A stretch of DNA of 64,000 nucleotides from Bacilli bacterium (lineage in GTDB: Bacteria > Bacillota_I > Bacilli_A > RF39 > UBA660): the NCBI GenBank assembly GCA_017441065.1, contig JAFSAI010000024.1, positions 1,142 through 65,141 on the forward strand. Reading direction: 5' to 3'. This document shows positions 7,650 through 61,423 of the stretch, in pieces. The translations under genes were made by a program, and so were the position numbers. The notes beneath the pieces were generated by a model that searched no databases, was not told the origin of the DNA, and saw only the letters and a program-made list of their open reading frames with translations. How positions within the stretch are numbered: the first letter of the stretch is position 1; the number at the start of each line of letters is the position of its first letter.

Positions 7650-7656
7650 CAAAAAT

Positions 7657-7690: not shown

Positions 7691-7691
7691 A

Positions 7692-42295: not shown

Positions 42296-42314
42296 AATAG
42301 TGTGAGGTTAGTAT

Positions 42315-43319: not shown

Positions 43320-43397
43320 AAATAGTAGTGTACATTATTTTGTTAAATTTAACTTTTATTAATTGACAACAAAAAATTAATATAATATGATTATTAT

Positions 43398-43498: not shown

Positions 43499-43559
43499 GT
43501 ATGATCATACCGAAAAATAAGCAAATAATACGATTTTTTTTGTAAGATGTTACAACGCT

Positions 43560-43581
43560 AGATACTATTTAGATACTATTT
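43560..43581 (+). repeat. Two tandem AGATACTATTT units
   Basis: The exact 11-mer occurs twice. The same AGATACT core is arrayed six times at 46321-46419. Confidence 0.8.
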
Positions 43582-43759
43582 ATTTGAAAAAATCAGATTT
43601 TTAAGATATAAAATTATATCTTTTTTGAAAATGAATACTTAAAGTGTAATAGAAATAATAAGGAAATCATTTTTATAAAGTCTAATTTATATTCTTAAAG
43701 TGGAATTCCGTTGTCTTCAGTACGATTTGGTTATATTTTTGTGATATAATCATATTGAG

Positions 43760-45043: not shown

Positions 45044-45061
45044 ATTTGAAGGAGGAATCCA

Positions 45062-45751: not shown

Positions 45752-45812
45752 ATGGTTAATAAACCAATAAAAAAGGATATCATGATGATATCCTAAAAAA
45801 CCACTTGAGGAA

Positions 45813-46025
45813 CTATCCCAGATTATTTCTTTTACTTCTATCTGGATTCGAAGCTATAAACTTTTTACCAGTATCTTGCTGTGTTCTAACATGATAATTA
45901 GGATACAAACCGTTTTCGACTTTTTTAACTGCTTGATTAATTGTCATGTTAAACCCAAGACGATTATCGTGTAACACTTTATTGAATCCTGTTGAAGATT
46001 CACTCTTTACTGACAATCTCTTCAT
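45813..46025 (-). CDS. Small hypothetical protein (DUF3892-like, tentative)
   Basis: 70 aa with a strong RBS AAGGAGG. The C-terminal YHVRT...KFIASNPDRSKRNNLG resembles the DUF3892 motif from memory. Confidence 0.5.
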   Translation of the reverse strand: MKRLSVKSESSTGFNKVLHDNRLGFNMTINQAVKKVENGLYPNYHVRTQQDTGKKFIASNPDRSKRNNLG

Positions 46026-46320
46026 AATTTAGCCTCCTTTCTGGAAGCTATAAATTGTATAGCAAAATGTAAAATATTCAAAAATCATTTTAACAAAATT
46101 GCTATTCTATGAATTCTTGGATATACTATTATTATCATAATAGGCTAAAAGTTATGATATTCAAGTTGCTATACATTATTTATAGCTTCTTAAATATGTT
46201 TTGCTAGAAAATCACATTAGTGATTTTTTTGTTTTTGTTCCTTATTTTCTAGCCAATAAAATTATATCATTTTTTAGCCGATTTTAAATAAAAAAACATA
46301 GTTTTTTTAATCAATTTTTT

Positions 46321-46420
46321 AGATACTGATTTAGATACTTTAAATGTTATTTTTGATATTAGATACTATTTTAGATACTTTAAATGTTATTTTTGATATT
46401 AGATACTATTTTAGATACTG
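46321..46420 (+). repeat. AGATACT iteron-like array containing a 40-bp tandem duplication
   Basis: AGATACTTTAAATGTTATTTTTGATATTAGATACTATTTT occurs twice exactly (46333-46372 and 46373-46412). Flanking AGATACT copies give six in 100 bp. An A/T-only tract lies just upstream. Confidence 0.9.
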
Positions 46421-46524
46421 AAAAATCAGTTTTTATTAAAGGATTTTAACAAGCTTTAAAGCCTTTTAAAGGATTTTAATTTGTAATAATGGAAAGAGTG
46501 GGAATTTAATGCATAAAAAAATTG

Positions 46525-46556
46525 CCCCCTGAAGAGAGCCGAAAGGCTCCATTTTT
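46525..46556 (+). repeat. Second copy of the CCCCCTGAAG + GNRA hairpin + T-run module
   Basis: CCCCCTGAAGAGAGCCGAAAGGCTCCATTTTT versus CCCCCTGAAGAGGCCGAAAGGCCTCATTTTTT at 43467-43498. The stem is maintained despite sequence changes. Confidence 0.8.
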
Positions 46557-46626
46557 GTTTATATTAAAGGTTTTTAGAACTATCGAGTAATTTTAGGTAC
46601 ACAAATTTAAAATAGGTTAAAATTTT

Positions 46627-46723
46627 CTATGACAAACTTACTGATGATTGTCTTTTTATCAGTAAATTTGTCATAGATATTAAAGTGCAAATATTAATTT
46701 CTAAAGTGCACAAATTGCACTTT
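46627..46723 (+). promoter_or_regulatory. Operator-like inverted repeats upstream of the fic gene
   Basis: A 19-bp inverted repeat CTATGACAAACTTACTGAT / ATCAGTAAATTTGTCATAG (1 mismatch, 12-nt spacer) spans 46627-46676. AAAGTGCA (46682) is followed by the palindrome AAAGTGCA-CAAAT-TGCACTTT (46703-46723). An extended -10 TGTTATAAT lies downstream. Confidence 0.5.
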
Positions 46724-46800
46724 GAAATTTCTTTTTTTATGTATATAATACTGCCAAATAGGAACTTTTTTGTTATAATGTTATTAGTGGAGGTGCTAAG

Positions 46801-47649
46801 ATGTCTGAAAGAGAATTAGATTCAAGTATAAATGATTATATTGAAATAGAAACACCTAAAAACTACGTGAAACAATTACAATGGGATATGGCTATTGGAC
46901 TCCAAGAAGTTGATAACTTAAAACCATCTAAGTATTTAGAAAAATTGTTACAAGAAAATGTAACAGGGGAAAAAACAATTTATGAAGTAGAACATGAGTT
47001 AAAACAATATTATGTAGAAAAAGATAAAACTGATAAAACAATTCAAGATGAATTTGAATGTGATCTAGTATCTACTAGAATAGTTCAATTGTTAGGAGAA
47101 GATAATTTTGAACTATCAGTAGACTATATAAAATATATACATGAAAATTTATTTAAAGATGTTTATGAATTTGCTGGAGATTTTAGAAAAGTAGATTTTT
47201 CTAAGCATGAAAGAATTTTAAATAATGATTCAGTTGCTTATGGTGATTGCAAATTGTTAGAACAATCATTAGATTATGATATATCGTTAGAAAAAAATAA
47301 AAACTATGGAAAAATGAATATAGTTGATGTAATTAATAATATAACTAACTTTTCTTCAAGCATATGGCAAATACATCCATTTAGAGAAGGTAATACTAGA
47401 ACTACAGCATTATTTATAGAAAAGTATTTAGTATCACTTGGATATGATGTAGATAACACTATGTTCAAAGAAAAATCAGTTTATTATAGAAATGCATTAG
47501 TAAGAAGTAATTATTTTAATAATTATTTAAATATAAAACAAGATAATAGTTTCTTAATTAAATTTTATGAAAATTTATTGTTAGGAAAGAATAATAACTT
47601 ACATTCAAGAGATTTAATTGTAGAAGAATTATTTAATAAAGAGAATTAA
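46801..47649 (+). CDS. Fic/DOC-family protein (probable AMPylase-type toxin/effector)
   Basis: Fic active-site loop HPFREGNTRTTALF (47374-47415) fits the HxFx(D/E)GNxRxxR pattern. RBS GGAGG. Confidence 0.85.
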   Translation: MSERELDSSINDYIEIETPKNYVKQLQWDMAIGLQEVDNLKPSKYLEKLLQENVTGEKTIYEVEHELKQYYVEKDKTDKTIQDEFECDLVSTRIVQLLGEDNFELSVDYIKYIHENLFKDVYEFAGDFRKVDFSKHERILNNDSVAYGDCKLLEQSLDYDISLEKNKNYGKMNIVDVINNITNFSSSIWQIHPFREGNTRTTALFIEKYLVSLGYDVDNTMFKEKSVYYRNALVRSNYFNNYLNIKQDNSFLIKFYENLLLGKNNNLHSRDLIVEELFNKEN

Positions 47650-47725
47650 AAAGAGGCGCTAGTACAGGCTTATTAATTTGATAAGTTTTTGTATTGGCGT
47701 TTTTTAGTATTAAGGAAGTGAAAAT

Positions 47726-49288
47726 ATGCAATATAATATATTCAAACTTGAAAATAAGGAAGAATTAAAAAAAGAAATGTTGGAAAGAAACTTTGAAAAG
47801 ATAGGTAATGAAATCGAGAGTGGTAAGTATAAATTAAATTTATATTATAAATACGATAATGATTTAAAACTAAGCTGGAAAAATATATTGGTAGAATTTG
47901 GTGAAACAAATCCACCTGCAAGGACTGGAATATCCGGTATAATTATTTGCGAAAGTTGTAATAATAATTATGCTATTACATATGGGGCTAGTAGTTTTTT
48001 GGCTCAAAAATATTCTGATAGAGAGTTTGGCTTTAATTTTGCAAAAAGAATAGAATTAAAGGAAATGAAAAGAAAAAGCTCAATGACCCCTCATTCAAGA
48101 AGAAATTCATCTATAACTTCATTTAAAAATACGAAAACGATTGTATTTGATAGTGGAGAAAATATAACTAGCTTATCTTTTACTCCGGACAATGAATTTT
48201 ATGGAAAAAGAATTGATATTGGTAAATCAATAAAATTAAAAACAGATATTTCATTAAGCGATATATATCAACTTTTTGATCAAATTGAAAGTGATGTAAG
48301 TAATAATATAATAAACAGAATCCCACTTTTAACTAAAATTACAAATGCTGATGAAATAGAACGATATGATAAAATGATGTATGATTCTTTAAGTAAAGAA
48401 TTTGATACTTATGGAAACTCTAATTCATCACAGTTTTCTATGAATGAATTTTATATTGTAGGTAGTAGTATTTACTTTGAAGAAGATCATACCCAAGTGG
48501 TTAAAGTAGGTAAGTATGAAGAAGAAATAGAGTTGCATAATTTGAATGATCTATTTGAATTGTCTAAAAATATTGGTGTTGATATACAAACAATTATTGA
48601 AAGAGGAAAAATAATTTATAAGGATTCTTCAAATGAAAAAATATATACTGAGAGTATAAGAAAATATATAAACTATGAAATAGAATCAGAAAATGTTTCG
48701 TTGTATAATGATGAATGGTTTTATTACAATGATGATTATTATGATTTAGTAATGAATGAAATAAAAACAATTGAAATTGAATATAATTCTTCTGATGATT
48801 ATACAAAAGAACAAATAGAAACTTTTAGGGTTAATGAAAAAGAATATAGAGAGGAAATTTTAAATAAAATTTTATCAAAAAAATATAATGGTAGATTATT
48901 AGATAGAGATATGTTTATTTCAAAATATGAAAATGAGTATTTTAATTCAGAATATAAAATAGAATTAGCTGATTTGTTATTGGATAATGAATATGTATCT
49001 GTAAAAATTGGTTCTGCACAGGCATTATCATATTGCGTAGATCAATCTGATTTATCAGCTAAGTTAATTGATGCTAAAAAAATAAATTTAGAGGAAAAAG
49101 GGTTGCCAATACCTGATAAATTTGGTGTTTGGTTTTATATGGAAAGTAATAGCGCTTTTGAAAATGGTACTGTTAATCTTCAAAAGATTCATTCAATTAT
49201 GTTATTAAGCAAATTAAGTACATGGTCAAAAAATATTAAAATTTTAGGAAAGACTCCAGTAATTCATATTAATAAATATATTAAATAA
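47726..49288 (+). CDS. Large hypothetical protein (possibly TIGR04141/DUF6119-type sporadically distributed family; unverified)
   Basis: 520 aa with RBS AAGGAAG and no motif I can assign. The family suggestion rests on size, N-terminal style and island context only. Confidence 0.5.
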   Translation: MQYNIFKLENKEELKKEMLERNFEKIGNEIESGKYKLNLYYKYDNDLKLSWKNILVEFGETNPPARTGISGIIICESCNNNYAITYGASSFLAQKYSDREFGFNFAKRIELKEMKRKSSMTPHSRRNSSITSFKNTKTIVFDSGENITSLSFTPDNEFYGKRIDIGKSIKLKTDISLSDIYQLFDQIESDVSNNIINRIPLLTKITNADEIERYDKMMYDSLSKEFDTYGNSNSSQFSMNEFYIVGSSIYFEEDHTQVVKVGKYEEEIELHNLNDLFELSKNIGVDIQTIIERGKIIYKDSSNEKIYTESIRKYINYEIESENVSLYNDEWFYYNDDYYDLVMNEIKTIEIEYNSSDDYTKEQIETFRVNEKEYREEILNKILSKKYNGRLLDRDMFISKYENEYFNSEYKIELADLLLDNEYVSVKIGSAQALSYCVDQSDLSAKLIDAKKINLEEKGLPIPDKFGVWFYMESNSAFENGTVNLQKIHSIMLLSKLSTWSKNIKILGKTPVIHINKYIK

Positions 49289-49297
49289 AAAAAGAGG

Positions 49298-49320
49298 CCT
49301 AGTCCTGTTAAAGGACTAGG
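49298..49320. terminator. Bidirectional hairpin between the 520-aa ORF and the integrase remnant
   Basis: CCTAGTCC-TGTTAAA-GGACTAGG. Confidence 0.6.
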
Positions 49321-49925
49321 TCATCTTTGTCTTTAGGTTTAACTATTTCATATTCTTCGTAATCATACGATTCTTCTTTTGGTTCGGGTAATGTTTCTTT
49401 GTGTTCTAATAAGATAGTTGGTTTAGTTTCTATAATATTATTATTTAATCTACTATTTTGTAGTTCGATAATATTAACAATGGTATCAAGTCTATTTTGA
49501 TACATATGTGAATAAGTATTCAATGTTTCATCTATTTTAGTATGTTCAAGATATTTAGCAACTAAAGTTATATTGGCACCGCTATCTATTAATAAAGAAG
49601 CACAACTATGTCTAAAGTCATATATTCTAATATCTTTAACTCTAGACATAAAAGCATTTTTTGTTTTTCTATCTAATAGAGTAGTAGCAGATAATGGATC
49701 AATATTTCCGAACACATACCAAGATTCTCTAAATCCATAATAATTAGCATAATCATTATATAAGTCAGATAAATCTTTTAATAAGAAATTTTGAATAGGG
49801 ATAGTTCTATAACTTGAACTTGTTTTAGATTTGGTAACAGCATAAGGTTTACCGAGCTTTGAGGAAAAATCTATTTCACGAGAAATTCTCTTATAAGGAC
49901 TAAGTAAAATTGTTATAAGATTTTT
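49308..49925 (-). pseudogene. 5'-truncated tyrosine recombinase (phage-type integrase) remnant
   Basis: Only the catalytic domain is present: KRISRE (Arg I), TKSKTSSSYRTIPI, YDFRHSCAS (HxxR) and LNTYSHM (Tyr). The frame stays open upstream to 49994, but there is no start codon and no N-terminal core-binding domain. Confidence 0.8.
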
Positions 49926-49988
49926 ATTTTTTTTAAATGCTAAAGTTGTGATATAATATGTTTGTAAGGTATTGGTGGTAGGTTTAAT

Positions 49989-50702
49989 ATGAAATTAAAT
50001 TCAATAATTAGTAATAATATTATAACTGAACTTGATAATTCTGATAATTTTGAAGACGTAGCTATTGTTTTGCATAAATATCAACAATATGAATTAAAAG
50101 GTTCTCATTTGGGAAGGGCTTTTGAAAAAATGTTTGTTAATTTAAATGGTTTTAGTCAATTTATACCAATGAGTGAATTAGAAAAATATCATCATTCATT
50201 CCATACAACCAACGGCGGAGATTGGTGTAGATCTAATCAAAGTTATTTAGGAAGAAAATATAATATAATTAGAGAAAAGCGTGGAGGCAGTATTTATGCT
50301 GTAAAGACGGATGGGATTAATAAAAATACTACTATTAATAGTGGCATAAGAAATGATATTGTAAATAGAATTCAGAAAGGCAGATGCGCAATTTTAGATG
50401 TTGGAACTAATATTGAATGTGATCATAAAGATGGTATGAAAGATGATTGGCGATTAAATGATAAAAATAGTCAGAACATTGATGATTTTCAGCCATTATC
50501 TAAATCGGCTAATGATGCTAAGCGTCAGCATTGTAGTTTATGTAAAAAATTAGGAAAACGTTATGATGCTAAAAGATTAGGATATTCGCATTCGTTTACG
50601 TTTGGAAATGAGAATTCTAAAACTTGTGTTGGCTGTTATTGGTATGATCCAATTGCTTTTAATAGAGAAATATCTAAAGATTTTGAAAAATTTGATAAAT
50701 AA
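49989..50702 (+). CDS. Putative type II restriction endonuclease, HNH/beta-beta-alpha-Me zinc-finger type
   Basis: ECDHKDG (50418-50435) ...N...FQPLSKSAN, plus HCSLC and CVGC zinc motifs. It lies convergent and tail-to-tail with an m5C methyltransferase gene. Confidence 0.6.
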   Translation: MKLNSIISNNIITELDNSDNFEDVAIVLHKYQQYELKGSHLGRAFEKMFVNLNGFSQFIPMSELEKYHHSFHTTNGGDWCRSNQSYLGRKYNIIREKRGGSIYAVKTDGINKNTTINSGIRNDIVNRIQKGRCAILDVGTNIECDHKDGMKDDWRLNDKNSQNIDDFQPLSKSANDAKRQHCSLCKKLGKRYDAKRLGYSHSFTFGNENSKTCVGCYWYDPIAFNREISKDFEKFDK

Positions 50703-50707
50703 AATAT

Positions 50708-50736
50708 AAAACAAGGAATTTTAATTATTCCTTGTT
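50708..50736. terminator. Bidirectional hairpin shared by the R and M genes
   Basis: AAACAAGGAAT-TTTAATT-ATTCCTTGTTT, overlapping the methylase stop codon. Confidence 0.6.
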
Positions 50737-51993
50737 TTCGTTTTCTAACATTATTTTTACTGCACATCCAATTGCTTTTCCTAATAGACAAGGAACTGCA
50801 TTTCCTATTTGAGTTAATTGCCATTTTTTTGAACCTTGAAATACAAAATCATCTGGAAATGATTGTAAACGTGCCAGTTCTCTTGCTGTTAATACTCTTG
50901 GAAGTTTTGGATGAATATTAGTTCCTCCATGGTTTTCTTTAATCGTGCAAGATGGTTCATTCCACGGACATTTTTTCCATGAATCAGAATAGTTTTTATA
51001 AAGACTCTTTCCTTCTTCTACATTTAATAGTCTTTGTTTCATTTCATCTGTATGTTTTGTAGTAACGTGATTAAATAGGGAATTATCAGGTATATTCATT
51101 AGATCTTCAATTGCATTTTTTGTTGTTACGTATTTTTGGGGCTCTAATAATGGTTTTGGGTGCAAGTTGTCTATTCCAATTCTATTTCCTATGAATATTA
51201 CTCTTTTTCTTGTTTGAGGAGTATAATAATCTGCGGCATTTAGTATGGTAACATTTATTTTATATCCAATTTTTTCGAAATCATTAATTATTTTTTCTTC
51301 AACTTTTCCACCTAGCATTGATCTTAGTCCAGGAACATTTTCCATAACTACAACTTTTGGCCTTAAATGGTCGACAATTTCTAACATATCCAGATATAAA
51401 GTGTTTCTATCGTCTGTAACTATTCTATTACCTGCCATACTGAACCCTTGACAAGGGAATCCTCCGACAATTAAATCAATATTTTTTCCCCAAACAGCAT
51501 CGTATAGATGTCTTTTTACATTATTATCTCTAATATCTCTGCTTTCAACATTTTCTTCAAATCCTTTTTTGTCCACAAAATTATATTTATATGTTGCTAC
51601 TGCTTGTTCCATAATTTCTACTGAACCGATTGGAGTCCAGCCTGCCATAACTAATCCACAAGATAATCCTCCTGCTCCAGAAAAAAGATCAATAAAATTA
51701 TATCCGTTTCTGTATTTAATATTTTTCCAGCCGTCTTTTGTCCAATCCTTACTTATATCAACAAAATTAATTTTTTTTGAATCTTCGTTTTTGTAATCTA
51801 CTTCGTCAAATATAGATTGGTTCTTTATGCCGCTTTGATAATTATTATACCATTCATTAAACCCTTCTTCAGAAATTCTGTATTTATTGTTTATCTTAGA
51901 CGCTTTTAAATTTCCCTCTGCAATTTGTCGCCTAATCGTTTTAATACTTTTGTTTGTTAGAATTGAAATTTCTTCCACATTATATATTTTCAT
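50725..51993 (-). CDS. DNA (cytosine-5)-methyltransferase with an N-terminal excisionase/MerR-like HTH
   Basis: Motif I FSGAGGLS, motif IV GGFPCQGFS, motif VI MENVPGL, motif VIII TPQTRKRV, motif X QIGNAVP. The N-terminal HTH is YNVEEISILTNKSIKTIRRQIAEGNLKA. The ATG at 51993 is preferred because the upstream TTG lies inside the promoter. Confidence 0.92.
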   Translation of the reverse strand: MKIYNVEEISILTNKSIKTIRRQIAEGNLKASKINNKYRISEEGFNEWYNNYQSGIKNQSIFDEVDYKNEDSKKINFVDISKDWTKDGWKNIKYRNGYNFIDLFSGAGGLSCGLVMAGWTPIGSVEIMEQAVATYKYNFVDKKGFEENVESRDIRDNNVKRHLYDAVWGKNIDLIVGGFPCQGFSMAGNRIVTDDRNTLYLDMLEIVDHLRPKVVVMENVPGLRSMLGGKVEEKIINDFEKIGYKINVTILNAADYYTPQTRKRVIFIGNRIGIDNLHPKPLLEPQKYVTTKNAIEDLMNIPDNSLFNHVTTKHTDEMKQRLLNVEEGKSLYKNYSDSWKKCPWNEPSCTIKENHGGTNIHPKLPRVLTARELARLQSFPDDFVFQGSKKWQLTQIGNAVPCLLGKAIGCAVKIMLENENKE

Positions 51994-52022
51994 ATTATCA
52001 TTCCTGTCCACTTTACATGTTA

Positions 52023-52051
52023 ATTTTACATAAGAGGAGGACAAAAGTCAA
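52023..52051 (-). promoter_or_regulatory. Methyltransferase promoter
   Basis: On the minus strand: TTGACT - 17 nt - TAAAAT. Confidence 0.55.
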
Positions 52052-52117
52052 TGGGCTTTTTTGATGTTACAATATTAACAATTTGTAGACTAAATAAACC
52101 AAATGTTTTTGCAATAT

Positions 52118-52146
52118 TTGACATATATTGTATTTTGGTGTAATAT
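52118..52146 (+). promoter_or_regulatory. Promoter of the five-gene operon
   Basis: TTGACA - 17 nt - TAATAT, with TG at -15/-14. It is flanked by an 11-bp inverted repeat AAATAAACCAA (52092-52102) / TTGGTTTATTT (52151-52161). Confidence 0.6.
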
Positions 52147-52175
52147 ATAGTTGGTTTATTTGAGGGGAGATAACT

Positions 52176-52394
52176 ATGAAAATTGAAAATAAAAGAGAAA
52201 AATTTATTCGCCTTGCTGAAAATAGAACTAACAAAGTTTTAAAAGAAATAGATTTAATAGGAAACCTTGCAAACAGAAGTAATTATGAGTATACACTGGA
52301 AGATACAGAAAAAATAATTAGGGCATTAAAAAAATCTGTGACAGATTTAGAAAATAAGTTTTCTAACAAAAGTAGGAGAGAATTTAAGTTATGA
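52176..52394 (+). CDS. Operon gene 1: small helical protein, unknown function
   Basis: 72 aa with RBS GAGGGGAG. The stop overlaps the next start (ATGA). Confidence 0.7.
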   Translation: MKIENKREKFIRLAENRTNKVLKEIDLIGNLANRSNYEYTLEDTEKIIRALKKSVTDLENKFSNKSRREFKL

Positions 52395-54583
52395 TTGCTT
52401 TATCAATTGAAGAATTAAATTTGTCTAACAAAGCAAAAAATGTATTAAGAAATTCTAATGTTGATGATATTTATTTAATGGCAATAGCTATAAATACGCC
52501 TGATTGTTTAATTGGATGTGGTGAAAAGACTTTGGCAGAATTAAAAAATGAAGTGGAAGAATTAAAAAAACAAGGTTATTATAGTGATGAATTTATAGAT
52601 AAATATTTGAGTTTTAATTTTATCGATTCTTTGGAGCTTTCAGTTCGCGCCAAAAATATTTTAAAACAAATGAAAATTTTTACACCTTCTGATTTAATTG
52701 ATTTATCTTTTGATGATTTAAATGGCTGTGCTGGGAAAAATACGGCATATGAAATTTTAGAATTTATTAACCAAAATAAAACAGATTTTATGTACAATCC
52801 AAATTGTAATTATAAATACCCTATTAAAAAAATTAATAATTTATGTGGAAACACAAAAATAGAATTGTTTTTAAATGTTTGTGATCGCCAAAAATATTTT
52901 GATAATAATATTTATAATATTTATGATTTAATTGTTTGTCCATTTGTTCCTAACAATTTTAATGATAAAGAACTACAAGAATTTAATTATTTTAAAAGTT
53001 TCTTTACAAAATTAGCTTATGGACAGTTAATTATTTCTATTAGTAGCAGTTTATCTTTAACATATATAAATATTCCTTTTAGTTTAAGTAATAAATATAA
53101 AATATTTGAGCTTGTTAAAATCAAAGAATTAATTTCTATTTGTGTGAACAATTTTAACGATTTTTCTTTGAAAGAACAATTAAATATTAAATTATATTTG
53201 AATTGGTTAAATACAATTGACATTCAAGATATAAATGAACATATTTTTAATAGTTTAAATTTATCAGATAAAGAAAAAGAAATAATGATTTTTAGAAATA
53301 TTATGACATTAGAGGAAACTGGCAATAAATTTGGTTTAACTAGAGAAAGAATAAGACAATTGGAATCAAAAATATGTGATAAGATAAGTCAAAAACTTTG
53401 CGAATTTCCTTTTAAGAAAATAATTGATAATGAAATATATTATTATGAACGTTGTACTGATTCGGAGAAGTTGTTATTGTATATAGATAGTGTTTTAGAT
53501 CAGTTTTATACTAAAATAAAAAAAGATAATAAATTTATTTTTATTAAAACCTCTGTTATAAATGAAATTTCTGATATGTTGAAAGAAAACAATACCTTTA
53601 TGAAAAAAAATGGTTACATTGAATATAGTTATAGCTGGAATAATGAAGTGTTAGATATAGCTTTGGATTATTTACAATTAAAACGACATAGAAACAATAT
53701 ATTTAACAATATTAACAAGAGTCAAATGGTAAAATTTGCATTAACCAAAATTAATAGACCAGTAAAAATTTATAATGAAGATGACAGAAGATTAATAATT
53801 GATACGATATATCACCTTTTTGGTGAATTGTTGGATGATTCTAGGGGATTAGAGGCTTTAATTGAAAAAAATTGTGTAAGAGTTGATTCAGGAATGTATG
53901 CTTTAGAAGATAATATTGTTCCATTAACAAAGGATACTTTTAATAAAATAGTAGAATATGTTAAAGATAATATAATAATTAATGCTAGAGATTTATTTGT
54001 TCCTTTTGGCGAAACTTTAATAGAACATAATTTGTTAAATGAGAATATTTTATATAGATATTTGAAAGAAAATTTATCTGATATATTATATTTTAATGGG
54101 GTGAGCGGGGTTATTTCTTCTAACTCTGATGATTCAAGTTGGGGAACTGTAATTATAAAATGCATTAAAGAAAAAGGTAAACCAATATCTAAAGCAGAAA
54201 TCATAGGAAGGTATCCTGTAACTACAGCTGTATATGATAATTTACCAATTAACTTTAATGACATTATTAAATGGGGAAAAGGTGAATTATTTTTAAAAAG
54301 CTTAATCTATTTTCCAGAAGAAGTTAAAACTAAATTTTTACAGTTGCTAAGTAAACAAAAAATTATGAAATTTGATGAGATCAGAGCTTTATTAAACTAC
54401 TTAGATAAAAGTATAATCTCTAGCAATCAAATAATTGATAACTATAGTTTAATAAGTTTTTTGAATAATACTGTTAAAGATAAAGTTGTTCTTAATAGAA
54501 AAAATGAGATAGCGATGATTAAAGAAGATTTTGGAGAAGTTAAAGTTGGTTCTTATTCTATTGCTGAAGAATTAACTATATAG
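52391..54583 (+). CDS. Operon gene 2: protein with two RNA polymerase alpha-CTD-like HhH modules, a sigma-70 region-4-like HTH and a ~390-aa unknown C-terminal region
   Basis: Residues 5-58 are IEELNLSNKAKNVLRNSNV...GCGEKTLAELK and residues 78-128 are LELSVRAKNILKQMKIFTPSDL...GCAGKNTAYEIL. Both parallel the alpha-CTD pattern (B. subtilis IEELDLSVRSYNCLKRAGI...NLGRKSLEEVK). Residues 288-335, LSDKEKEIMIFRNIMTLEETGNKFGLTRERIRQLESK, form a sigma r4 HTH. Confidence 0.75.
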   Translation: MIALSIEELNLSNKAKNVLRNSNVDDIYLMAIAINTPDCLIGCGEKTLAELKNEVEELKKQGYYSDEFIDKYLSFNFIDSLELSVRAKNILKQMKIFTPSDLIDLSFDDLNGCAGKNTAYEILEFINQNKTDFMYNPNCNYKYPIKKINNLCGNTKIELFLNVCDRQKYFDNNIYNIYDLIVCPFVPNNFNDKELQEFNYFKSFFTKLAYGQLIISISSSLSLTYINIPFSLSNKYKIFELVKIKELISICVNNFNDFSLKEQLNIKLYLNWLNTIDIQDINEHIFNSLNLSDKEKEIMIFRNIMTLEETGNKFGLTRERIRQLESKICDKISQKLCEFPFKKIIDNEIYYYERCTDSEKLLLYIDSVLDQFYTKIKKDNKFIFIKTSVINEISDMLKENNTFMKKNGYIEYSYSWNNEVLDIALDYLQLKRHRNNIFNNINKSQMVKFALTKINRPVKIYNEDDRRLIIDTIYHLFGELLDDSRGLEALIEKNCVRVDSGMYALEDNIVPLTKDTFNKIVEYVKDNIIINARDLFVPFGETLIEHNLLNENILYRYLKENLSDILYFNGVSGVISSNSDDSSWGTVIIKCIKEKGKPISKAEIIGRYPVTTAVYDNLPINFNDIIKWGKGELFLKSLIYFPEEVKTKFLQLLSKQKIMKFDEIRALLNYLDKSIISSNQIIDNYSLISFLNNTVKDKVVLNRKNEIAMIKEDFGEVKVGSYSIAEELTI

Positions 54584-54591: not shown

Positions 54592-56511
54592 ATGAATAAT
54601 AACATTAAATGGCAATTAAGGCCTACTTATACAGAAGGTGATAAATTTCATAATGGTGATACAGAAATTTTTAAATCTGGTAAATGGGCATTTTTAACTA
54701 GAGAGGTAATACAAAATTCAAATGATGCTTTTGATTCTATGAAAGATGAAAGTGGTAAATTAGTTATGAAATTTTCTATGGAGAATTTACCAATTAATGC
54801 TTTTCCTGATTTGGAAAATTTAAAAAAACATATAAACGGAACATATTCAATTAATAATTTGCCGGAAACATGTAAAAGTTTTTGCGAGAGTGCATTAAAA
54901 ACACTTTCAAGAGAATCGATAAAAATAATGAAAATATCAGATTTTAACACTTCTGGAGTATTGGGAAGTAATGACTTAAATAATATTAAAAGCCAATGGC
55001 GCGCATTGATTTATGATGAAGGAAATTCACAGAAAGATAGTAGACAGGCAGCGGGTAGTTTTGGATTAGGAAAAAATGCCCCATTTGCTTTATCTGGTAT
55101 TAATACAGTTTTTTATACAACAAAAGATAAGGATGGATTGTATGCTTTTGAAGGTGTTGCTAAACTTCATACTTCATATATTGATGATCAAAAATATGAA
55201 CCTAAAATATATTTTTCAAATTTATATAATAATAAAACAATACCATTAAATTACGATGATTGTAAGGATATAAATGATATTTTTAAGCGTGATATTAAAG
55301 GAACGGATATATTTATTATGGATGTTGATTATGATGAAGATAAAATAAAAAAAGAAATGATTCAAGCGGTAGTAGAAAATTTCTTCATTAGAATTCAAAA
55401 TTGTAAATTAGAAGTGGATATGTTTGGTGAGTTAATTAATAAAGATTCATTATTAAATATTGTTATGAAGTATTGTGATCAACCAATTGAATATACAAAT
55501 TCTAATATAAGATATGGTTATATAAAGCAGTATCTTAATACATATTTAGGAAAATATGAAAAAACAAAAATTTATAATGAAGAGGTTCCTGGTGTAGGAA
55601 AATTAAAATTGTTCATTGCTATTGACCCAGATATTAATGGAAAATGGGTTGCAATGTTTAGAACTAAAGGTATGAAAATTTTTGATTATAATTATAGATT
55701 AGCTCAACAACAATTTTCCGCAATCTTTATGCCAGATGATCCTGATGTGGATGAATTTTTAAGATCAATAGAAAATCCTACTCATGATTTATTTGATCCA
55801 GAAATTAGAATATCAGATAAAGATAAAAAAATAATAGCTCAGCAACGATATGATAAGATTATTAATTGGATTAAAGGTAAGATAGTAGAATTTACAAAGA
55901 TCAATGTCGATGAACAAGATTTTCTTGATGGTATGGAAGAGTATATTCAGTTGCTTGATGAGGATGAGAGTAAAGAACGAAAAGTAAAACAGCCTGATAT
56001 AGAAATTATTTCATACGAGCCTAAAAAACAAAGAATAAATATGTCAATACTTGATAATGCAGGTAGTGAAAAATTAGTAGAACCAGAGCCAGAACCGGAT
56101 GATGGAATTATTGATCATACAAATTCTTTGGAAGTATCTGTACCAAATGATGAAAAAGGTTCTGGTAAACAGTCAATTGTAAAAGATTATCATAATAATT
56201 TTTCTGTTAAACCGAAGATTATTTCATATAATAATACTTTAAGAACTGCTTTTGGAATTGAAAATCTTGACATTGACACAATAAATTTAGAGATACTTAC
56301 AGTTGGTGAAGATGATAATATTTCGGATTTTATTCCAAAAATACTTAAAGCGGTTGATTGTGTGAATAACGTTGAATTAAAAGTAGATAACAATAAAATA
56401 CTAAATATTAAAAATGAAAAAACTAACGTAATTGAAATAATTTTTGAACGTGATTTTCAGGCAAAATATAAAATTTCTGTGTATACAGTTAAAGCTATGG
56501 AGGATTTATAA
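54592..56511 (+). CDS. Operon gene 3: GHKL-superfamily ATPase (MORC/Hsp90/sacsin-like Bergerat fold) with an unknown C-terminal half
   Basis: N-box REVIQNSNDA (ExxxNxxDA, residues 37-46), G1-like ISDFNTSGV (115-123) and G2 GSFGLGKNAPF (155-165). RBS AGGAGGG. Confidence 0.75.
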   Translation: MNNNIKWQLRPTYTEGDKFHNGDTEIFKSGKWAFLTREVIQNSNDAFDSMKDESGKLVMKFSMENLPINAFPDLENLKKHINGTYSINNLPETCKSFCESALKTLSRESIKIMKISDFNTSGVLGSNDLNNIKSQWRALIYDEGNSQKDSRQAAGSFGLGKNAPFALSGINTVFYTTKDKDGLYAFEGVAKLHTSYIDDQKYEPKIYFSNLYNNKTIPLNYDDCKDINDIFKRDIKGTDIFIMDVDYDEDKIKKEMIQAVVENFFIRIQNCKLEVDMFGELINKDSLLNIVMKYCDQPIEYTNSNIRYGYIKQYLNTYLGKYEKTKIYNEEVPGVGKLKLFIAIDPDINGKWVAMFRTKGMKIFDYNYRLAQQQFSAIFMPDDPDVDEFLRSIENPTHDLFDPEIRISDKDKKIIAQQRYDKIINWIKGKIVEFTKINVDEQDFLDGMEEYIQLLDEDESKERKVKQPDIEIISYEPKKQRINMSILDNAGSEKLVEPEPEPDDGIIDHTNSLEVSVPNDEKGSGKQSIVKDYHNNFSVKPKIISYNNTLRTAFGIENLDIDTINLEILTVGEDDNISDFIPKILKAVDCVNNVELKVDNNKILNIKNEKTNVIEIIFERDFQAKYKISVYTVKAMEDL

Positions 56512-57404
56512 TGAGAATAAAATTTGATAATACTTATTTTCCAAAGCCAGTTTTAAATGAAAATTTAGATGATTTTAATAAAAATTCATTTAAAATTTCT
56601 TATAGTATTAAGAATTACGATAAAATTAGGCAAAAGTTAACTATAAATGTAAGTGTTGCGTTAGAAAATGAATATATTAAACGACAAATAAAAAGTGGGA
56701 AAGTTGTTCCATTGCTTCATTTAGAGCAAATTACTCAGAGACAGGTCGAACAATTATCTTTATCTGAAAGCAAAGAAGTTGAAATTGATTTGTTACAATA
56801 TGCTACAAATACTGAAATAGAAGTTATGGGTATATTGTATTGTAAAGAATCATTTGCTTTGATGGATGTAGAAAATTTAAACGATGTTTACAGAATGTTA
56901 GATAAACCAATATATTTTGGACGTGGAGATATAATTGGATATAGTAATTATATTGCCATAAAGTTGCCTGAAGATCGAAGAATAGGTAGTATTTTTAATT
57001 TAAATGGAGATAAAGATAAAATATTAAATGGAGATACATTGAAAGTTTCTTTAACAAATGATTTAATAGATATCATTTTAGAAGAAAAAGTTCATAAAAA
57101 ACTTGTAGATACTTATAGAAGTGATCCGTATGTAAAAAAATTAATTTTTTCTTCAATTGTTATTCCTGCATTAATTACAGCCTATACTGAAATGTTTAAT
57201 GATTATCCGACTTATAAAGAAAAGAAATGGTGTAAGAGTTTAGCTGATAAAATAGAAAAAGAAGAAAAATTAAAATCAGAAGAAATTTTTGTTCAATCAA
57301 ATTATGAATTAGATAAAATATATCATTATGTAAATATTGCAATGGGTGATTTATATAAAGATGCTATAGAATTTTATCATTCAAAACTGGAAGGTGATAA
57401 TTAG
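56511..57404 (+). CDS. Operon gene 4: hypothetical protein
   Basis: 297 aa. The start overlaps the previous stop (TAATG). No motif recognised. Confidence 0.65.
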   Translation: MRIKFDNTYFPKPVLNENLDDFNKNSFKISYSIKNYDKIRQKLTINVSVALENEYIKRQIKSGKVVPLLHLEQITQRQVEQLSLSESKEVEIDLLQYATNTEIEVMGILYCKESFALMDVENLNDVYRMLDKPIYFGRGDIIGYSNYIAIKLPEDRRIGSIFNLNGDKDKILNGDTLKVSLTNDLIDIILEEKVHKKLVDTYRSDPYVKKLIFSSIVIPALITAYTEMFNDYPTYKEKKWCKSLADKIEKEEKLKSEEIFVQSNYELDKIYHYVNIAMGDLYKDAIEFYHSKLEGDN

Positions 57405-57405
57405 T

Positions 57406-58143
57406 ATGGGAAAAATGTATTTGTTAAATGATAACGTGTTAGATAATTTAAAGAAATCTATTATTATTGAAAAATATAAACAAAATGCTTTTTTAGAAAA
57501 TGAATACCTTGGTAAACAATTCAGAACTTCTATAGATACTTTTATTGATATTAGTGATTTGCCCGAACTATATGTAAGGGAAAAAGATGAAGAACCCTTC
57601 TGGATTCAAGATTTAAATAATGCTATAAAACTTCATTCTGTCATAAATTCTAAAAATATTCCAATAAGATACTTGGTTGATGAAAGATTTTGGACTTATT
57701 TAACACATACTGTTTATTGGGATTATTTACAAAAAAGATGGCCAGCAGATTCTGAATCTAGAGTAAAACAAAAATGGTTTTTTGATGGTGGCAATCAAGT
57801 TTTTTCTAGACATTCTTTAGTTAGATTATGGTGGTTAGCAGAGTGCTCTTATTCAAATTATTACTCAAATCCGTATGAATTGACAAAAACAGCATTTGAA
57901 TTTCAAGATCCTTTTAATCAAGTAATTGAAAGAAAAATCAGTAAAAGTAGAAAAATATTTAGAGCTGCATTAAAGGCGTTGCATGATACTCCGGAAGCTT
58001 ATAAACTTAAAGGTGATAAAAACAGAACTAAATTTGGGAAAGCAATTAACACAATTGCTGGCGTAAAATTAATTGAAGTAATGTCAGAAGATGAAATTGT
58101 AAATATGTTTAAACAACAAATTGGATATATAATTAATGAATAA
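57406..58143 (+). CDS. Operon gene 5: hypothetical protein, Trp-rich
   Basis: 245 aa. The ATG lies 1 nt after the previous stop and is preceded by GGAAGGTGA. It has a conserved-looking core (RFWTYLTHTVYWDYLQKRWP...LVRLWWLAECSY) but no enzymatic motif. Confidence 0.65.
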   Translation: MGKMYLLNDNVLDNLKKSIIIEKYKQNAFLENEYLGKQFRTSIDTFIDISDLPELYVREKDEEPFWIQDLNNAIKLHSVINSKNIPIRYLVDERFWTYLTHTVYWDYLQKRWPADSESRVKQKWFFDGGNQVFSRHSLVRLWWLAECSYSNYYSNPYELTKTAFEFQDPFNQVIERKISKSRKIFRAALKALHDTPEAYKLKGDKNRTKFGKAINTIAGVKLIEVMSEDEIVNMFKQQIGYIINE

Positions 58144-58358: not shown

Positions 58359-59695
58359 ATGAACATAACAGATAAAGCAAAAGAATTTGCAATCAAAGCG
58401 CATAAAGGTCAAGTAAGAAAAAGTGAACCAGAAAAACCAATGGTAATACATCCAATAAATGCTGGTGAAATATTAAAAGAATATAGTTTTGATGATAATG
58501 TTATCGCTGCAGGTTATCTTCATGATGTTGTTGAAGATACTTCATACACTAAAGAAGATATTGAAGAATTATTTGGTAGTGATATTGCATCTTTAGTAAT
58601 GGGTGCTTCAGAACCTGATAAATCTTTATCTTGGGAAGAAAGAAAAAAACATACTATTGAAAGTATTAAAGAATTAGATATGAGACATAAAGCAGTAGTA
58701 TGTGCAGATAAGATTAGTAACTTAGAAGATTTAAGAAACTTTTTTGAAAGAAATGGTGAGTATAACTTTGATGCTTTTAGAAGAGGATATAAAGAACAAA
58801 AATGGTATTATACTGGTGTATATGAAAGTTTAATAACTAATGAGGATGAAAATCATCCTATGTTTGTTAGATTAAAAGAATTAGTAGATCATATCTTTAA
58901 TGATATAAAGAATGATGAATATGTTAAGAATGTTATATTTAAAGACAATATGGAAGAATATAATAAGTTATTAAAATTACATTATCGTAAATTAGAAATA
59001 TATAAAATGAATAAATTTATAACTAATAAGAAACCATATGTAATTGAATTTACTGGAACACCTAGAACAGGTAAACAACACTTATAAATAACTTATTAGA
59101 TTTCTTTAAAAAATGTGGATTTAAAGTATCAGTAATTGAAGAATTTACTACTTCAAAAAGATATAAAAAAGATATATATCCAACATTAAAGGATAAATAT
59201 AAAAATATAGTAAATACAGAAATACCTAAATATGTATTAAAAGAATTAGAAGATACTATTAATGATAATCCAGATATTATTATAGTAGATAGATCTTTAT
59301 TCGATAGATTAATATGGGTAGATAGATTACATATAAAAAATGGTATGAGTGATGAAGAGTATAATGATTATAAAAAGTTATATATACCATTAATAAAAGA
59401 AAAAATAGATATTATAATATCTACTTATACTGATAGTATAACTTCTCTAAAAAGAGATTATAATGCTAATCTATCTTTAGAAAAAAGAAATTTCTTAAAT
59501 GAAGATAATGTTAATGAATATAATAACTCATTACTTAATATGAAAGAATTAGCAAGTAATGAAGATATTAATTTTTATTTATTTGATACTACTGATAAAA
59601 ATCAAAGAGAAATATCTTTTGAAGTTGCAGATGTAATACTTAGTGATATGAGAAGTAAGTATGTTGAAGAAATACAAAAAGAATATAGAAGTTAG
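58359..59695 (+). pseudogene. Frameshifted fusion gene: RelA/SpoT-type HD ((p)ppGpp-hydrolase-like) domain + P-loop kinase-like domain
   Basis: The HD domain shows HKGQVRKSE...IHPINAG...GYLHDVVEDT. The Walker A FTGTPRTGK is interrupted at 59073-59087. The -1 frame continues TTLINNLLDFF...IIIVDRSLFDR...(ORF 59345-59695). One extra A in the AAA run would restore GKTTL. Confidence 0.75.
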
Positions 59696-59756
59696 ATTTA
59701 AAAAATATGTGCTATAATAATTAAAGAAAAGAATTGCCATTGTTGTAGGAGTGTTT

Positions 59757-61319
59757 ATGATACATGTAAAAAAAATGGACATTAGTTTTTATTATAGACA
59801 ATCATTATATTATATAAATTATTTTTTTTATAATGATAATAATTTCAATTTTTTTATAAAAAAAATAATTAAAAACTTAAAATTATTACCTCAAAAATAT
59901 AGAAATCGATCAGATCAACAAAAGTTGCTTCCTCTAAAAAAAGAAATAATGAAACTTTTTGAATCTGAATTACTAAAATTTTCAAAAAAAGAAGTGTTAA
60001 TAAAGATTTTACCAATAATTTCTGATAAAATTTTTTTGAAAAAGCAATACAATTTTTATAGATATAATATTGACGGAACTTCAAATTTATTTTACAATGT
60101 TCAAAAAATAGAATTTGAAATTAAAGTATTAAAATTTATTTTAGAAAAAAGGCTCGCATTAAATGATGTTAATGTTAGAAAAAAAATAAAAAGGAAAGAA
60201 TTAATTGAAATTATTAGTTTGGGATCTTTTGTATACAAATTTCAAATTGTGTTAGATTTTATGTATTATGAAATGAATTTAGGCTCTGTTGAAATAGACG
60301 AAAATTATAATTTAAATATAGATTTTTGTCAAACAAATTTGAATACAAAATATTTAGAAGAAACTTATGATGCTAATGATATCATTTTAGATGATAATAT
60401 TTTAAAAGAATATATTAAATGTTTTAAATTGGATTTAGGATTTGACATTAATGATTTTACAGAAGTTTCATCATGTTTGTGTTTAGATATACCTACTAAG
60501 AACCCCTTTAAATTGAATAATAATATATTTATAATTAAAAAAAGCAAATTGATAGAATTAGTTTATAAGAAAAACCAAAGGAATTTATCATATGATACAA
60601 TAAACAACATATTAAATTACCTTATATTAAATAAAGATGAAGTCGTTGCAAATTATAGAAGAGAAGAAACAGTTAATAGAATAGATCAAAAGCCTATATT
60701 AGATTATAATGGAGTATTGTACTATTCTCCTGCAATGCTTTCAGAAATTCATCGCTATTTTATAAATGCAATATTAATATATGATTTTCCATTTAAAAAA
60801 GATTTAAAAAATATTAATAAATTGTTTGAAAAAATCAAAAAAAAGGCAGAAAAACAAATTGTATATGATACAGCAAATGTTTTAAAAAAATATATAAGCG
60901 GCCCGATATATGTTGAACGTAAATTACATCAAATAAATTCACTAATAGGAAAGTCATTTTCTGAAAGTATAGGAGATTTTGATATTTTGGCTATAGATAA
61001 TATGAAAAAAATAATTTATAATATTGAAATTAAAAATTTAAAATTATATTCTACAATTTATGAAATGTATAGGCAATATCATGGATTTTATGATAAAAAC
61101 AATTATGAAATAAAATTTAGTAGAAGAATAGATGCTTTATCAGAAAATAAAAAGAATATTTTCCCTGTGTGTTTTAATCTGAATGTTGATGAGTACCAAA
61201 TAGTAAATGTTTTTTTGACTAATAAAAGTTTTAATCCATTGTTTTCGAAAAGAAAAGATATTATATATTTGAGTTTTAATATGTTTGAAAATTATTTAAA
61301 GTTGAAAGGTAATTTATAA
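59757..61319 (+). CDS. Hypothetical protein with a C-terminal PD-(D/E)xK-like nuclease motif
   Basis: RBS AGGAG 6 nt before the ATG at 59757. The motif is GDFDILAID...IYNIEIKNLK at about 60968-61040. The rest is unassigned. Confidence 0.6.
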   Translation: MIHVKKMDISFYYRQSLYYINYFFYNDNNFNFFIKKIIKNLKLLPQKYRNRSDQQKLLPLKKEIMKLFESELLKFSKKEVLIKILPIISDKIFLKKQYNFYRYNIDGTSNLFYNVQKIEFEIKVLKFILEKRLALNDVNVRKKIKRKELIEIISLGSFVYKFQIVLDFMYYEMNLGSVEIDENYNLNIDFCQTNLNTKYLEETYDANDIILDDNILKEYIKCFKLDLGFDINDFTEVSSCLCLDIPTKNPFKLNNNIFIIKKSKLIELVYKKNQRNLSYDTINNILNYLILNKDEVVANYRREETVNRIDQKPILDYNGVLYYSPAMLSEIHRYFINAILIYDFPFKKDLKNINKLFEKIKKKAEKQIVYDTANVLKKYISGPIYVERKLHQINSLIGKSFSESIGDFDILAIDNMKKIIYNIEIKNLKLYSTIYEMYRQYHGFYDKNNYEIKFSRRIDALSENKKNIFPVCFNLNVDEYQIVNVFLTNKSFNPLFSKRKDIIYLSFNMFENYLKLKGNL

Positions 61320-61337
61320 AGCAGTTTTAAATGAAAA

Positions 61338-61363
61338 AAATACGGGGTACACCCGTATTTTTA
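61338..61363 (+). terminator. Terminator
   Basis: ATACGGGG-TACA-CCCGTAT followed by TTTT. Confidence 0.7.
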
Positions 61364-61423
61364 TATTTCTAAATATCTCCAATACTGAATACTATTATAT
61401 AAAGAAGTATTTAAGGAGAATTT

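Follow-up and report, generated by a model that had tools for sequence, protein, structure and literature searches.

A gene at positions 52391 to 54583 of a 64,000-nucleotide stretch of a Bacilli bacterium contig (JAFSAI010000024.1; the whole stretch is called the window below) encodes a 730-residue protein that combines two modules resembling the C-terminal domain (alpha-CTD) of the alpha subunit in RNA polymerase (RNAP) with a helix-turn-helix (HTH) of the kind found in region 4 (r4) of sigma-70 factors. It is followed by three genes of the candidate defence system PDC-M33 ("PDC" marks a PADLOC candidate system), and its relatives elsewhere likewise stand first in their cassettes; we refer to it as the lead protein. 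Its parts are as follows.

52391..54583, plus strand: lead protein, ATG start, 730 residues; two alpha-CTD units, helical linker, sigma r4 HTH, C-terminal alpha/beta region, EELTI tail
52397..52570, plus strand: alpha-CTD-like unit 1 (residues 3-60), with K14 at the R265 position and N17 at the N268 position
52616..52774, plus strand: alpha-CTD-like unit 2 (residues 76-128), with S84-V85-R86-x-x-N89-x-L91 and G115 conserved
52778..53251, plus strand: conserved, mostly helical linker (residues 130-287) with no family match
53252..53398, plus strand: sigma-70 region-4-type HTH (residues 288-336), recognition helix T317-R-E-R-I-R-Q-L-E-S-K327 at 53339-53371
53444..54556, plus strand: conserved C-terminal alpha/beta region (residues ~352-722) with winged-helix-like units, also present in the Pbe-linked class described below
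54557..54583, plus strand: class-specific tail ...AEELTI and stop codon, from comparison of tail patterns

Both kinds of module had been proposed in a preliminary description of the window and were recovered by profile, alignment and structure comparison. Pfam places RNA_pol_A_CTD at residues 76-122 (E=2.3e-11; 43.7 bits, cut-off 23.8) and Sigma70_r4 at residues 291-332 (E=4.9e-8; 32.8 bits, cut-off 24.1). Unit 1 taken by itself (residues 1-68) scores slightly below the RNA_pol_A_CTD cut-off (E=4e-4, 20.4 bits); it is an internal repeat of unit 2 (hhalign, probability 96.4%, E=1e-9) and can be aligned with the alpha-CTD chains of T. thermophilus and B. subtilis. A degenerate third helix-hairpin-helix (HhH) is possible at residues ~140-190, where hhalign gives a probability of 49% against unit 1 and of 0.1% against unit 2. 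In the tool alignments LSVRAKNILK of the lead protein pairs with LSVRAYNCLK of genuine alpha subunits, with R86 (codon CGC, 52646-52648) at the position of R265, and LTRERIRQLE pairs with VTRERIRQIE of region 4 of SigA and RpoD.

The N-terminal modules might have been generic HhH repeats, an outcome that the preliminary description had allowed for. The AlphaFold2 model of the lead protein (mean predicted local distance difference test score, pLDDT, 73) instead matches the B. subtilis alpha-CTD 1z3e_B in Foldseek with probability 1.00, TM score 0.76, a root-mean-square deviation of 1.5 A and 30% identity. It also matches the T. thermophilus alpha-CTD 1doq and, again with probability 1.00, a chimera of sigmaA r4 and the beta-flap tip (7kug_D). 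The best PDB sequence matches of the r4 segment are the short rpoD region-4 chains 4g6d, 4g8x and 4g94, which we take to be S. aureus sigmaA r4 crystallised with gp67 of phage G1. For the C-terminal ~400 residues only insignificant matches of cullin, UFL1, CapW and WHB type were obtained (best Foldseek E=0.011, TM ~0.09, with the full-length model), and the fold search of the full-length model returned no viral protein with the architecture of the lead protein.

The public record of the gene (IJN13_03325, in the metagenome-assembled genome, MAG, "Bacilli bacterium") begins at M94 and gives a protein of 637 residues. This start would remove alpha-CTD unit 1 and half of unit 2 (window 52391-52669). 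Residues 1-93 are conserved in all homologues, and the upstream ATG is preceded by the Shine-Dalgarno sequence AGGAGA and overlaps the stop codon of the upstream open reading frame (ORF) as ATGA. We therefore regard the 730-residue start as correct and the public one as mis-called, and its annotation needs correction.

The lead gene and its partner genes

Five further features surround the lead gene in the window.

52176..52394, plus strand: helical ORF of 72 residues, partner of the lead protein; its stop overlaps the lead ORF start (ATGA)
54592..56511, plus strand: PDC-M33A, predicted GHKL ATPase; Bergerat fold and transducer, disordered linker (residues 441-528), Ig-like beta-sandwich (residues 529-635)
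56511..57404, plus strand: PDC-M33B, 297 residues (PADLOC)
57394..58143, plus strand: PDC-M33C/DUF6339, 249 residues (PADLOC; Pfam DUF6339)
50725..52044, minus strand: HTH_17 domain and C5 cytosine DNA methyltransferase; divergent, accompanies the module almost constantly

PADLOC matches the three downstream genes, in the canonical order, to PDC-M33A (E=5.7e-101), PDC-M33B (E=3.2e-25) and PDC-M33C (E=7.7e-40), and M33A starts 8 nt after the lead gene on the same strand; the lead protein itself matches no PDC-M33 model in PADLOC. The GHKL ATPase that had been proposed as a neighbour is borne out by the Bergerat motifs of M33A, which are invariant in 32 homologues (E38, N42 and D45; D117 and G122; G155, G158 and G160), and by Foldseek matches of its model (pLDDT 77.5) to the ATPase regions of TRAP1/Hsp90, GyrB and ParE at E=6e-9 to 1e-5. 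Judged by this predicted fold, M33A combines a GHKL ATPase and transducer with a disordered linker of ~90 residues and an Ig-like beta-sandwich at its C-terminus. The fold was revealed by structure prediction only, the Pfam HATPase models being blind to M33A. Searches with M33A (as single sequence and as profile), M33B and M33C against PDB and Pfam sequences gave nothing apart from the match of M33C to DUF6339, and no nuclease was identified among the three proteins in the Pfam and PDB searches.

The small ORF is translationally coupled to the lead gene and follows the pattern KFIRLAENR.N..LKEI.LIGNLANKSNYEYT.ED..KII..LKKSV.DLE.KF. It belongs to no Pfam, PADLOC or NCBIfam family and has only two faint PHROG matches. 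Its sequence is 50-89% identical across all nine loci with a two-alpha-CTD lead protein, and the ORF is absent or unrelated where the lead protein is absent.

An indexed search gave only ~10 relatives of the lead protein (L-numbers denote loci recovered by the searches). All recovered loci of the window type have an identical gene order, namely an ORF of 72-81 residues, a lead protein of ~730-780 residues, M33A, M33B and M33C. They derive from metagenomes (L001, L002, L004-L006 and L012) and from MAGs of Bacilli and Clostridia from rabbit, goat and sheep gut (L007-L010), and all 10 close members carry both Pfam domains. Compared with the window, M33A of L012 is only 30% identical and its lead protein only 25%. 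In one Clostridia MAG (L010, JAFXHJ010000002.1) the lead gene is split into parts of 181 and 546 residues (5760-7977) and M33A into parts of 258 and 372 residues (7998-9904), which represents either a decaying copy or an assembly or frameshift error.

The window, L001, L002 (3' end only), L004 and L007-L012 each have a gene for an HTH_17-C5 methyltransferase next to the module. In the window this gene adjoins, in convergent orientation, the gene of an IceA-like nuclease. Enzymes of the IceA/NlaIII type are usually paired with N6-adenine methyltransferases, so that the C5 pairing in the window is odd. We considered whether the methyltransferase is merely the partner of this nuclease and rejected this, as it accompanies the module in the IceA-less loci L007-L012. 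A perfect bidirectional terminator hairpin with a 12-bp stem lies between the two genes (50708-50738).

The M33A family is much larger, with at least 216 clusters, and M33ABC also occurs without the lead pair. It follows an LlaJI restriction-modification (R-M) system in C. paraputrificum (L013) and a D12 methyltransferase in L014, and the second copy of L011 likewise has no lead pair. The latter locus (4-11466) has tandem M33ABC triplets with a GmrSD type IV restriction gene between them. Its first triplet is preceded by an unrelated protein of 852 residues that shares only the TRERIRQIE sigma-r4 HTH with the window protein, while the second has only an ORF of 90 residues before it and an HTH_17-C5 methyltransferase after it. 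The occurrence of M33ABC without the lead pair indicates that the pair is an optional accessory.

An exhaustive profile search for the superfamily of the lead protein returned 441 cluster representatives at E<=1e-30; as clusters were formed at 50% identity, this corresponds to at least 441 clusters. All members carry sigma r4 and usually one to three alpha-CTDs. Most are ~870-890 residues long and match profile positions ~80-730, which span a single alpha-CTD as well as linker, r4 and C-terminal region; members of 1000-2000 residues have more alpha-CTD/HhH units. Public names are derived from domains only ("sigma factor-like helix-turn-helix DNA-binding protein", "RNAP subunit alpha C-terminal domain-containing protein"), and the NCBI Gene Ontology (GO) terms of the relatives are transcription-related, by inference only. 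In every locus examined, i.e., the window and about 20 others, the superfamily protein is the first gene of the cassette, lying on the same strand with a short gap or overlap (window, L001-L012, the Pbe class and a Ruegeria plasmid).

The class of ~880-1100 residues leads a cassette composed of a PLD-SNF2 helicase (683 residues), an ORF of ~50 residues, an SMC-like ATPase (652 residues), a protein of ~170 residues and then dndB-dndC-dndD. PADLOC recognises PbeA (E=2e-200), PbeC (6e-74), DndB (3e-132) and DndC (7e-128) among these genes, the lead gene often overlaps pbeA, and all context look-ups placed the cassettes on conjugative elements. In gut metagenome contigs of Bacillota that resemble integrative and conjugative elements (ICEs; L175-L180 and L183-L184) the lead gene, PbeABCD and DndBCD come directly after type IV secretion/conjugation genes (TraG/VirB4-like, PrgI, TrbL, sortase and CHAP), and a HARE-HTH/Mrr type IV nuclease gene lies closely upstream of the cassette in L175-L178. 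PbeABCD without a lead gene is found on L. plantarum and Pseudanabaena plasmids. In a third effector context (L181, 8001-19231, and L182) an HTH_26 gene of 76 residues, a lead protein of 1076 residues and an ORF of 54 residues precede the effector genes, which encode a 781-residue PAPS_reduct and Fe-S protein (Fer4), a 1408-residue protein without a Pfam match and a DUF7864/DUF7863 protein. This context may represent another sulfur- or base-modification-linked system.

A further member was found indirectly, via PbeA, on an alphaproteobacterial plasmid, from Ruegeria sp. THAF33 (NZ_CP045388.1; L185, 42354-50216). Here dndD-E-A are followed by a 1026-residue "sigma factor-like HTH DNA-binding protein" whose stop codon overlaps the start of pbeA ("DNA phosphorothioation system restriction enzyme") by 1 nt. 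Sigma70_r4 is recognised in this protein at E=2e-13 and alpha-CTD/HhH by a weak match; its C-terminal region is homologous to that of the superfamily (hhalign probability 97%). As a distant superfamily member it extends the lead-gene arrangement across phyla. In tblastn searches of phage and plasmid collections neither the window protein nor a second family query (P0142) gave a match, so that phage- or plasmid-borne members are not indicated at this sensitivity. A profile scan of metagenome and viral contigs with the alignment of the ~880-residue class was uninformative because its most conserved peptide, TRERxRQxE, is common to all sigma factors: matches covered only residues ~247-310, and the loci obtained (L015-L174), which are nearly all ordinary sigma genes, were set aside.

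The coupling to a GHKL ATPase that the preliminary description emphasised holds for the window-type loci but not across the family, most members of which lead PbeABCD-Dnd and another the PAPS-reductase/giant-protein cassette. GHKL coupling is not a family trait; the common trait is the position as lead gene of a modification-linked restriction-like cassette. Nearly every locus examined carries a DNA-modification module, either the HTH_17-C5 methyltransferase or a dndBCD or PAPS-reductase gene.

The wider surroundings in the window contain the following cargo of the island.

42315-43319: HNH endonuclease
43760-45043: KAP-family NTPase
46801-47649: Fic
58359-59087: small protein resembling HD_4 RelA/SpoT hydrolases

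An integrase C-terminal remnant of 135 residues is encoded on the minus strand within 49308-50738, and the flanks (41492-49288 and 58359-62668) also hold a PnuC-type nicotinamide mononucleotide transporter and several ORFs of 414-522 residues without a family match. With HNH, KAP NTPase, Fic, the integrase remnant, the IceA-like restriction endonuclease, the C5 methyltransferase and PDC-M33ABC, the earlier term "defence island" is a reasonable description. Neither rpoA nor sigA of the host lies within the 64-kb window.

Conserved residues, tails and upstream DNA

Residue conservation was assessed in 229 superfamily sequences that are otherwise ~20% identical, aligned to one profile (224 sequences in the r4 columns). 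The near-invariant r4 residues are R302 (99%), T306 (92%), L307 (99.6%), G311 (96%), T317 (96%), R318 (99%), E319 (99%), R320 (100%), R322 (99%), Q323 (100%), E325 (96%) and K327 (89%). We take these to correspond to R562, T572, L573, G577, T583, R584, E585, R586, R588, Q589, E591 and K593 of E. coli sigma70, a set that includes the residues contacting the -35 element. Of the members that have the alpha-CTD unit next to the linker, 97% conserve R86 (E. coli R265), 98% G115 (G296) and 87% N89 (N268). At the alpha-CTD position that corresponds to E261, the determinant of sigma contact, P, N, G or other residues are found, and the sigma positions equivalent to R596 and R599 (activator contacts) and to F563 (the N303 column) are variable. 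Judged from these alignments, the conserved core of both modules is the set of DNA contacts, while the protein-contact positions vary.

The C-terminal tails track the effector class. EELT[ILV] is confined to the two-alpha-CTD, ~730-residue, M33-linked class (14 of 231 sequences), and an acidic tail of the DDLDNID type occurs in at least 73 members of the Pbe class. The alpha-CTD units of the lead protein are ~30-45% identical to genuine alpha-CTDs of solved structure and show no greater similarity to those of Firmicutes than to the rest.

A stretch of conserved, operator-like DNA precedes the small ORF.

52114..52146, plus strand: putative operon promoter (from position and conservation), -35 TTGACA at 52118-52123, 17-nt spacer, -10 TAATAT

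The 15-mer ATATTTGACAWATAT (52114-52128), which contains the perfect TTGACA, sits inside a 17-bp near-palindrome. It occurs once per locus, 43-63 nt before the small ORF, in seven of nine related loci. The conserved DNA comprises window 52026-52176 and the upstream regions of L001, L002, L004 and L007-L009; half-sites of the form ACAATAT/ATATTGT flank or overlap the -35 and -10 elements, and this intergenic DNA is shared even between loci whose proteins are only 40-50% identical. This AT-rich region shows no excess of promoter-like hexamers as such (63 found, 81 expected), which is why a promoter function is deduced from position and conservation. Candidates for binding the operator are the HTH_17 domain of the methyltransferase, the 72-residue protein and r4 of the lead protein.

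Possible roles of the lead protein

We favour, tentatively and with somewhat less than even confidence, a role of the lead protein as a DNA-reading subunit of promoter-element type, which targets or regulates a modification-linked restriction-like system and is coupled to its effector through the C-terminus. This is close to the AT-rich or promoter-DNA-sensing module that the preliminary description had named as its fallback. We infer DNA binding, the recognised sequence, a physical association with M33A-C and an activity of the cassette against invaders. The system in the window would comprise the 72-residue ORF, the lead protein, M33A, M33B and M33C/DUF6339, with the HTH_17-C5 methyltransferase alongside. 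The N-terminal half of the lead protein would line up, independently of RNAP, the modules with which the polymerase recognises upstream promoter DNA: the two alpha-CTD (HhH)2 domains would read the A/T-rich minor groove through a determinant of the R265/N268/G296 type, and the sigma r4 HTH would recognise a -35-like TTGACA hexamer in the major groove via its T-R-E-R-x-R-Q helix. The winged-helix-rich C-terminal region and the class-specific tail (EELTI) may couple this reader to the effector ATPase complex; the lead protein would thereby bring the effector to particular DNA, or gate the effector on such DNA, and it may exert feedback by also binding the palindromic -35 region of its own promoter.

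A physical partner rather than a mere regulator is suggested by the size of the lead protein, by 400 conserved residues outside the HTH, by the frequent overlap of its reading frame with that of the effector gene and by the co-variation of tail and effector. The occurrence of the family before two or three different effector cores, nearly all beside DNA-modification genes, likewise speaks for a DNA-reading subunit, as do the near-invariance of the DNA-contact residues, the palindromic -35 element upstream and the precedents of sigma-type HTHs within restriction or defence machinery (MzaA and DndH variants). Several considerations weigh against it. The lead family is known from genes and predicted structures alone. 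As M33ABC and PbeABCD occur without the lead gene, its product is not a core mechanistic subunit. In a host of 25% G+C, A/T tracts and TTGACA alone would not tell foreign from self DNA, and a plain transcription regulator would be expected to conserve its DNA-contact residues just as well. Moreover, the C-terminal region has no confident structural analogue, so that only the co-variation of tails with effectors speaks for its coupling.

The main rival is a dedicated transcription regulator, which we consider possible but less probable than a subunit. Such a protein would use its sigma-r4 and alpha-CTD heads to bind its own promoter, where A/T-rich DNA flanks the palindrome around the -35 element. 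Like an oversized counterpart of the C-proteins known from R-M systems, it would repress the toxic restriction genes or set the time of their expression with respect to the methyltransferase or Dnd genes, and would be especially useful on ICEs entering naive hosts. It would fit this role that the lead gene is the first of its operon and optional, like the regulators BrxR and CapW, that many Pbe-class loci reside on conjugative elements, that the residues of r4 reading the -35 element are invariant and that the GO terms, inferred as they are, relate to transcription. The conserved ATATTTGACAWATAT with its perfect TTGACA and repeated half-sites upstream of seven of the nine loci also fits this role, but any sigmaA promoter should keep its -35 hexamer, and the half-sites could equally belong to the HTH_17 domain of the methyltransferase or to the 72-residue protein. 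A length of 730-2000 residues, with ~400 conserved non-HTH residues and effector-specific tails, is also far beyond regulatory need, and the frequent overlap of the lead and effector reading frames suggests that the two proteins are made in stoichiometric amounts.

The guard or decoy role that headed the preliminary description appears unlikely. It holds that the alpha-CTD and sigma-r4 modules mimic RNAP surfaces hit by phage takeover factors, such as enzymes of the Alt/ModA type that ADP-ribosylate R265 or binders of region 4 of the AsiA or gp67 type, and that the ATPase effector is activated once the bait has been captured or modified. One non-polymerase protein does display both phage-targeted RNAP surfaces with key residues nearly invariant, the best PDB matches of r4 are the chains 4g6d, 4g8x and 4g94 from complexes with gp67, and an optional lead protein that precedes different effectors behaves as sensor modules often do. 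Nevertheless, we found no specific support for it: the family is not tied to GHKL ATPases, and the DNA-modification modules at nearly all loci point to a self/non-self logic based on modification, by which self is marked and a sensor of phage proteins is not obviously needed. What is invariant is the set of DNA contacts, whereas the determinants of protein contact (the equivalents of E261, R596 and R599) vary. With ~30-45% identity and no Firmicute preference, the alpha-CTD units are not recent copies of host sequences, and the architecture is ancient, reaching from Bacillota to Pseudomonadota. Since R265 is both a DNA contact and the target of ADP-ribosylation, however, its conservation would also be compatible with a bait.

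Of all alternatives we give the least credence to an adaptor that docks on RNAP, a role that we regard as improbable. Here r4 would bind the beta-flap tip of core RNAP and tether the restriction machinery to transcribing or sigma-free polymerase, whereby transcription of invading DNA would be sensed or blocked. Consistent with docking are the match of the r4 model to the flap-tip chimera 7kug_D (probability 1.00), the independent recurrence of large r4-containing lead proteins before such cassettes (MzaA and the 852-residue protein of L011) and the published Pbe phenotype, which is non-degradative (PMC6459918). The lead protein, however, lacks sigma regions 2 and 3 as well as the alpha N-terminal domain (NTD), another sequence stands in place of the segment after the HTH by which the flap-binding pocket is completed, and again the invariant residues are DNA contacts. 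The position equivalent to F563 (the N303 column), a residue important for flap binding in E. coli, is variable.

A more specific proposal, which we judge to be rather a long shot, is that the family acts as a free-standing promoter reader. It would seek strong sigmaA-type promoters, i.e., an UP element plus TTGACA, on unmodified incoming DNA and guide ATPase machines to them, either the Hsp90/MORC-like GHKL protein M33A or the SMC-like PbeC with the helicase PbeA. These machines would clamp or compact the DNA and silence it without cleavage, as a bacterial analogue of MORC-type silencing. If true, this would explain the non-degradative, replication-blocking phenotype of PbeABCD.

In any case, the poorly understood PbeABCD and the uncharacterised PDC-M33 share an unstudied lead protein made of promoter-reading parts of RNA polymerase. 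If it is a DNA-targeting subunit, it offers a testable handle on where modification-linked systems act, with R86, N89, R318, E319, R322 and Q323 as candidate residues; in phosphorothioate systems only a minority of sites is modified. A regulator would constitute a new class of controllers for establishing restriction systems on mobile elements, and a decoy would be the first immune bait mimicking RNAP.

Comparison with known systems

The lead protein is not RpoA. It shares the fold of the RpoA alpha-CTD (PF03118) and keeps the "265 determinant" (positions of the R, N, G and K/S type), but it has no Pfam match to the alpha NTD, carries the alpha-CTD in tandem duplicate and does not conserve the 261-determinant position. 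The rpoA equivalog model TIGR02027 scores 33.1 bits against a cut-off of 227.8 and covers only residues 48-128. It resembles sigma-70 region 4 (PF04545) in having the sigmaA r4 fold and an HTH whose recognition helix follows the T-R-E-R-I-R-Q-x-E-x-K pattern of group 1-3 sigma factors. Since Pfam finds neither Sigma70 region 2 nor region 3 in it, it is not able to act as a sigma factor; all NCBIfam sigma models match only residues ~235-339, with scores 10-30 fold short of the cut-offs.

The definition of PDC-M33 does not extend to a fourth or fifth gene; the 72-residue ORF and the 730-residue lead protein form an undescribed accessory pair in a subset of these systems. The published PbeABCD system, reported from archaea, is likewise described with four genes only (a helicase, a 66-residue protein, an SMC-like protein and a 152-residue protein), has no lead protein and shows a non-degradative, replication-blocking phenotype (PMC6459918). 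The gene sizes of the superfamily cassettes match those published. PbeABCD-Dnd resembles the system in the window in that ATPase machines are paired with a DNA-modification module, but the window contains neither Pbe nor Dnd genes; its core is GHKL-M33ABC and its modification gene the C5 methyltransferase. The lead family merits inclusion in the definitions of both PbeABCD and PDC-M33.

A comparable linkage is known from the MORC/paraMORC GHKL ATPases, which are linked in operons to DNA methyltransferases and DNA-binding HTH proteins (Iyer, Abhiman & Aravind 2008, PMC2292703). The window has the same association of GHKL, methyltransferase and HTH, whereas sigma or alpha-CTD partners are not mentioned in that paper, and the closest structural matches of M33A are Hsp90/TRAP1 and GyrB, with no Pfam HATPase match. 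A literature search for alpha-CTD/sigma-r4 fusion proteins in defence systems, for PDC-M33 and for DUF6339 found no paper; the architecture of alpha-CTD, r4 and C-terminal region and its link to PbeABCD and PDC-M33 appear to be undescribed.

The nearest parallel is MzaA (NF041931; PADLOC PDLC02203), likewise a large protein (~700 residues) with a sigma-70 region-4 HTH, encoded by a lead gene that precedes a defence cassette with a MutL/GHKL-type ATPase and reported in only some of the related systems (PMC9523054). The lead protein scores 31.5 bits against MzaA (equivalog cut-off 800), with the match confined to the HTH. In MzaA, r4 lies at the C-terminus (profile positions 653-701 of 726) and not in mid-protein, no alpha-CTD match and no C-terminal similarity were detected between the two, and the downstream genes in the window are M33ABC instead of MzaBCDE. 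A sigma-related HTH is also inserted in some DndH variants (PMC10853773). By analogy, the lead protein seems most like the MzaA-type sigma-HTH lead proteins and these sigma-related HTH inserts of some DndH proteins.

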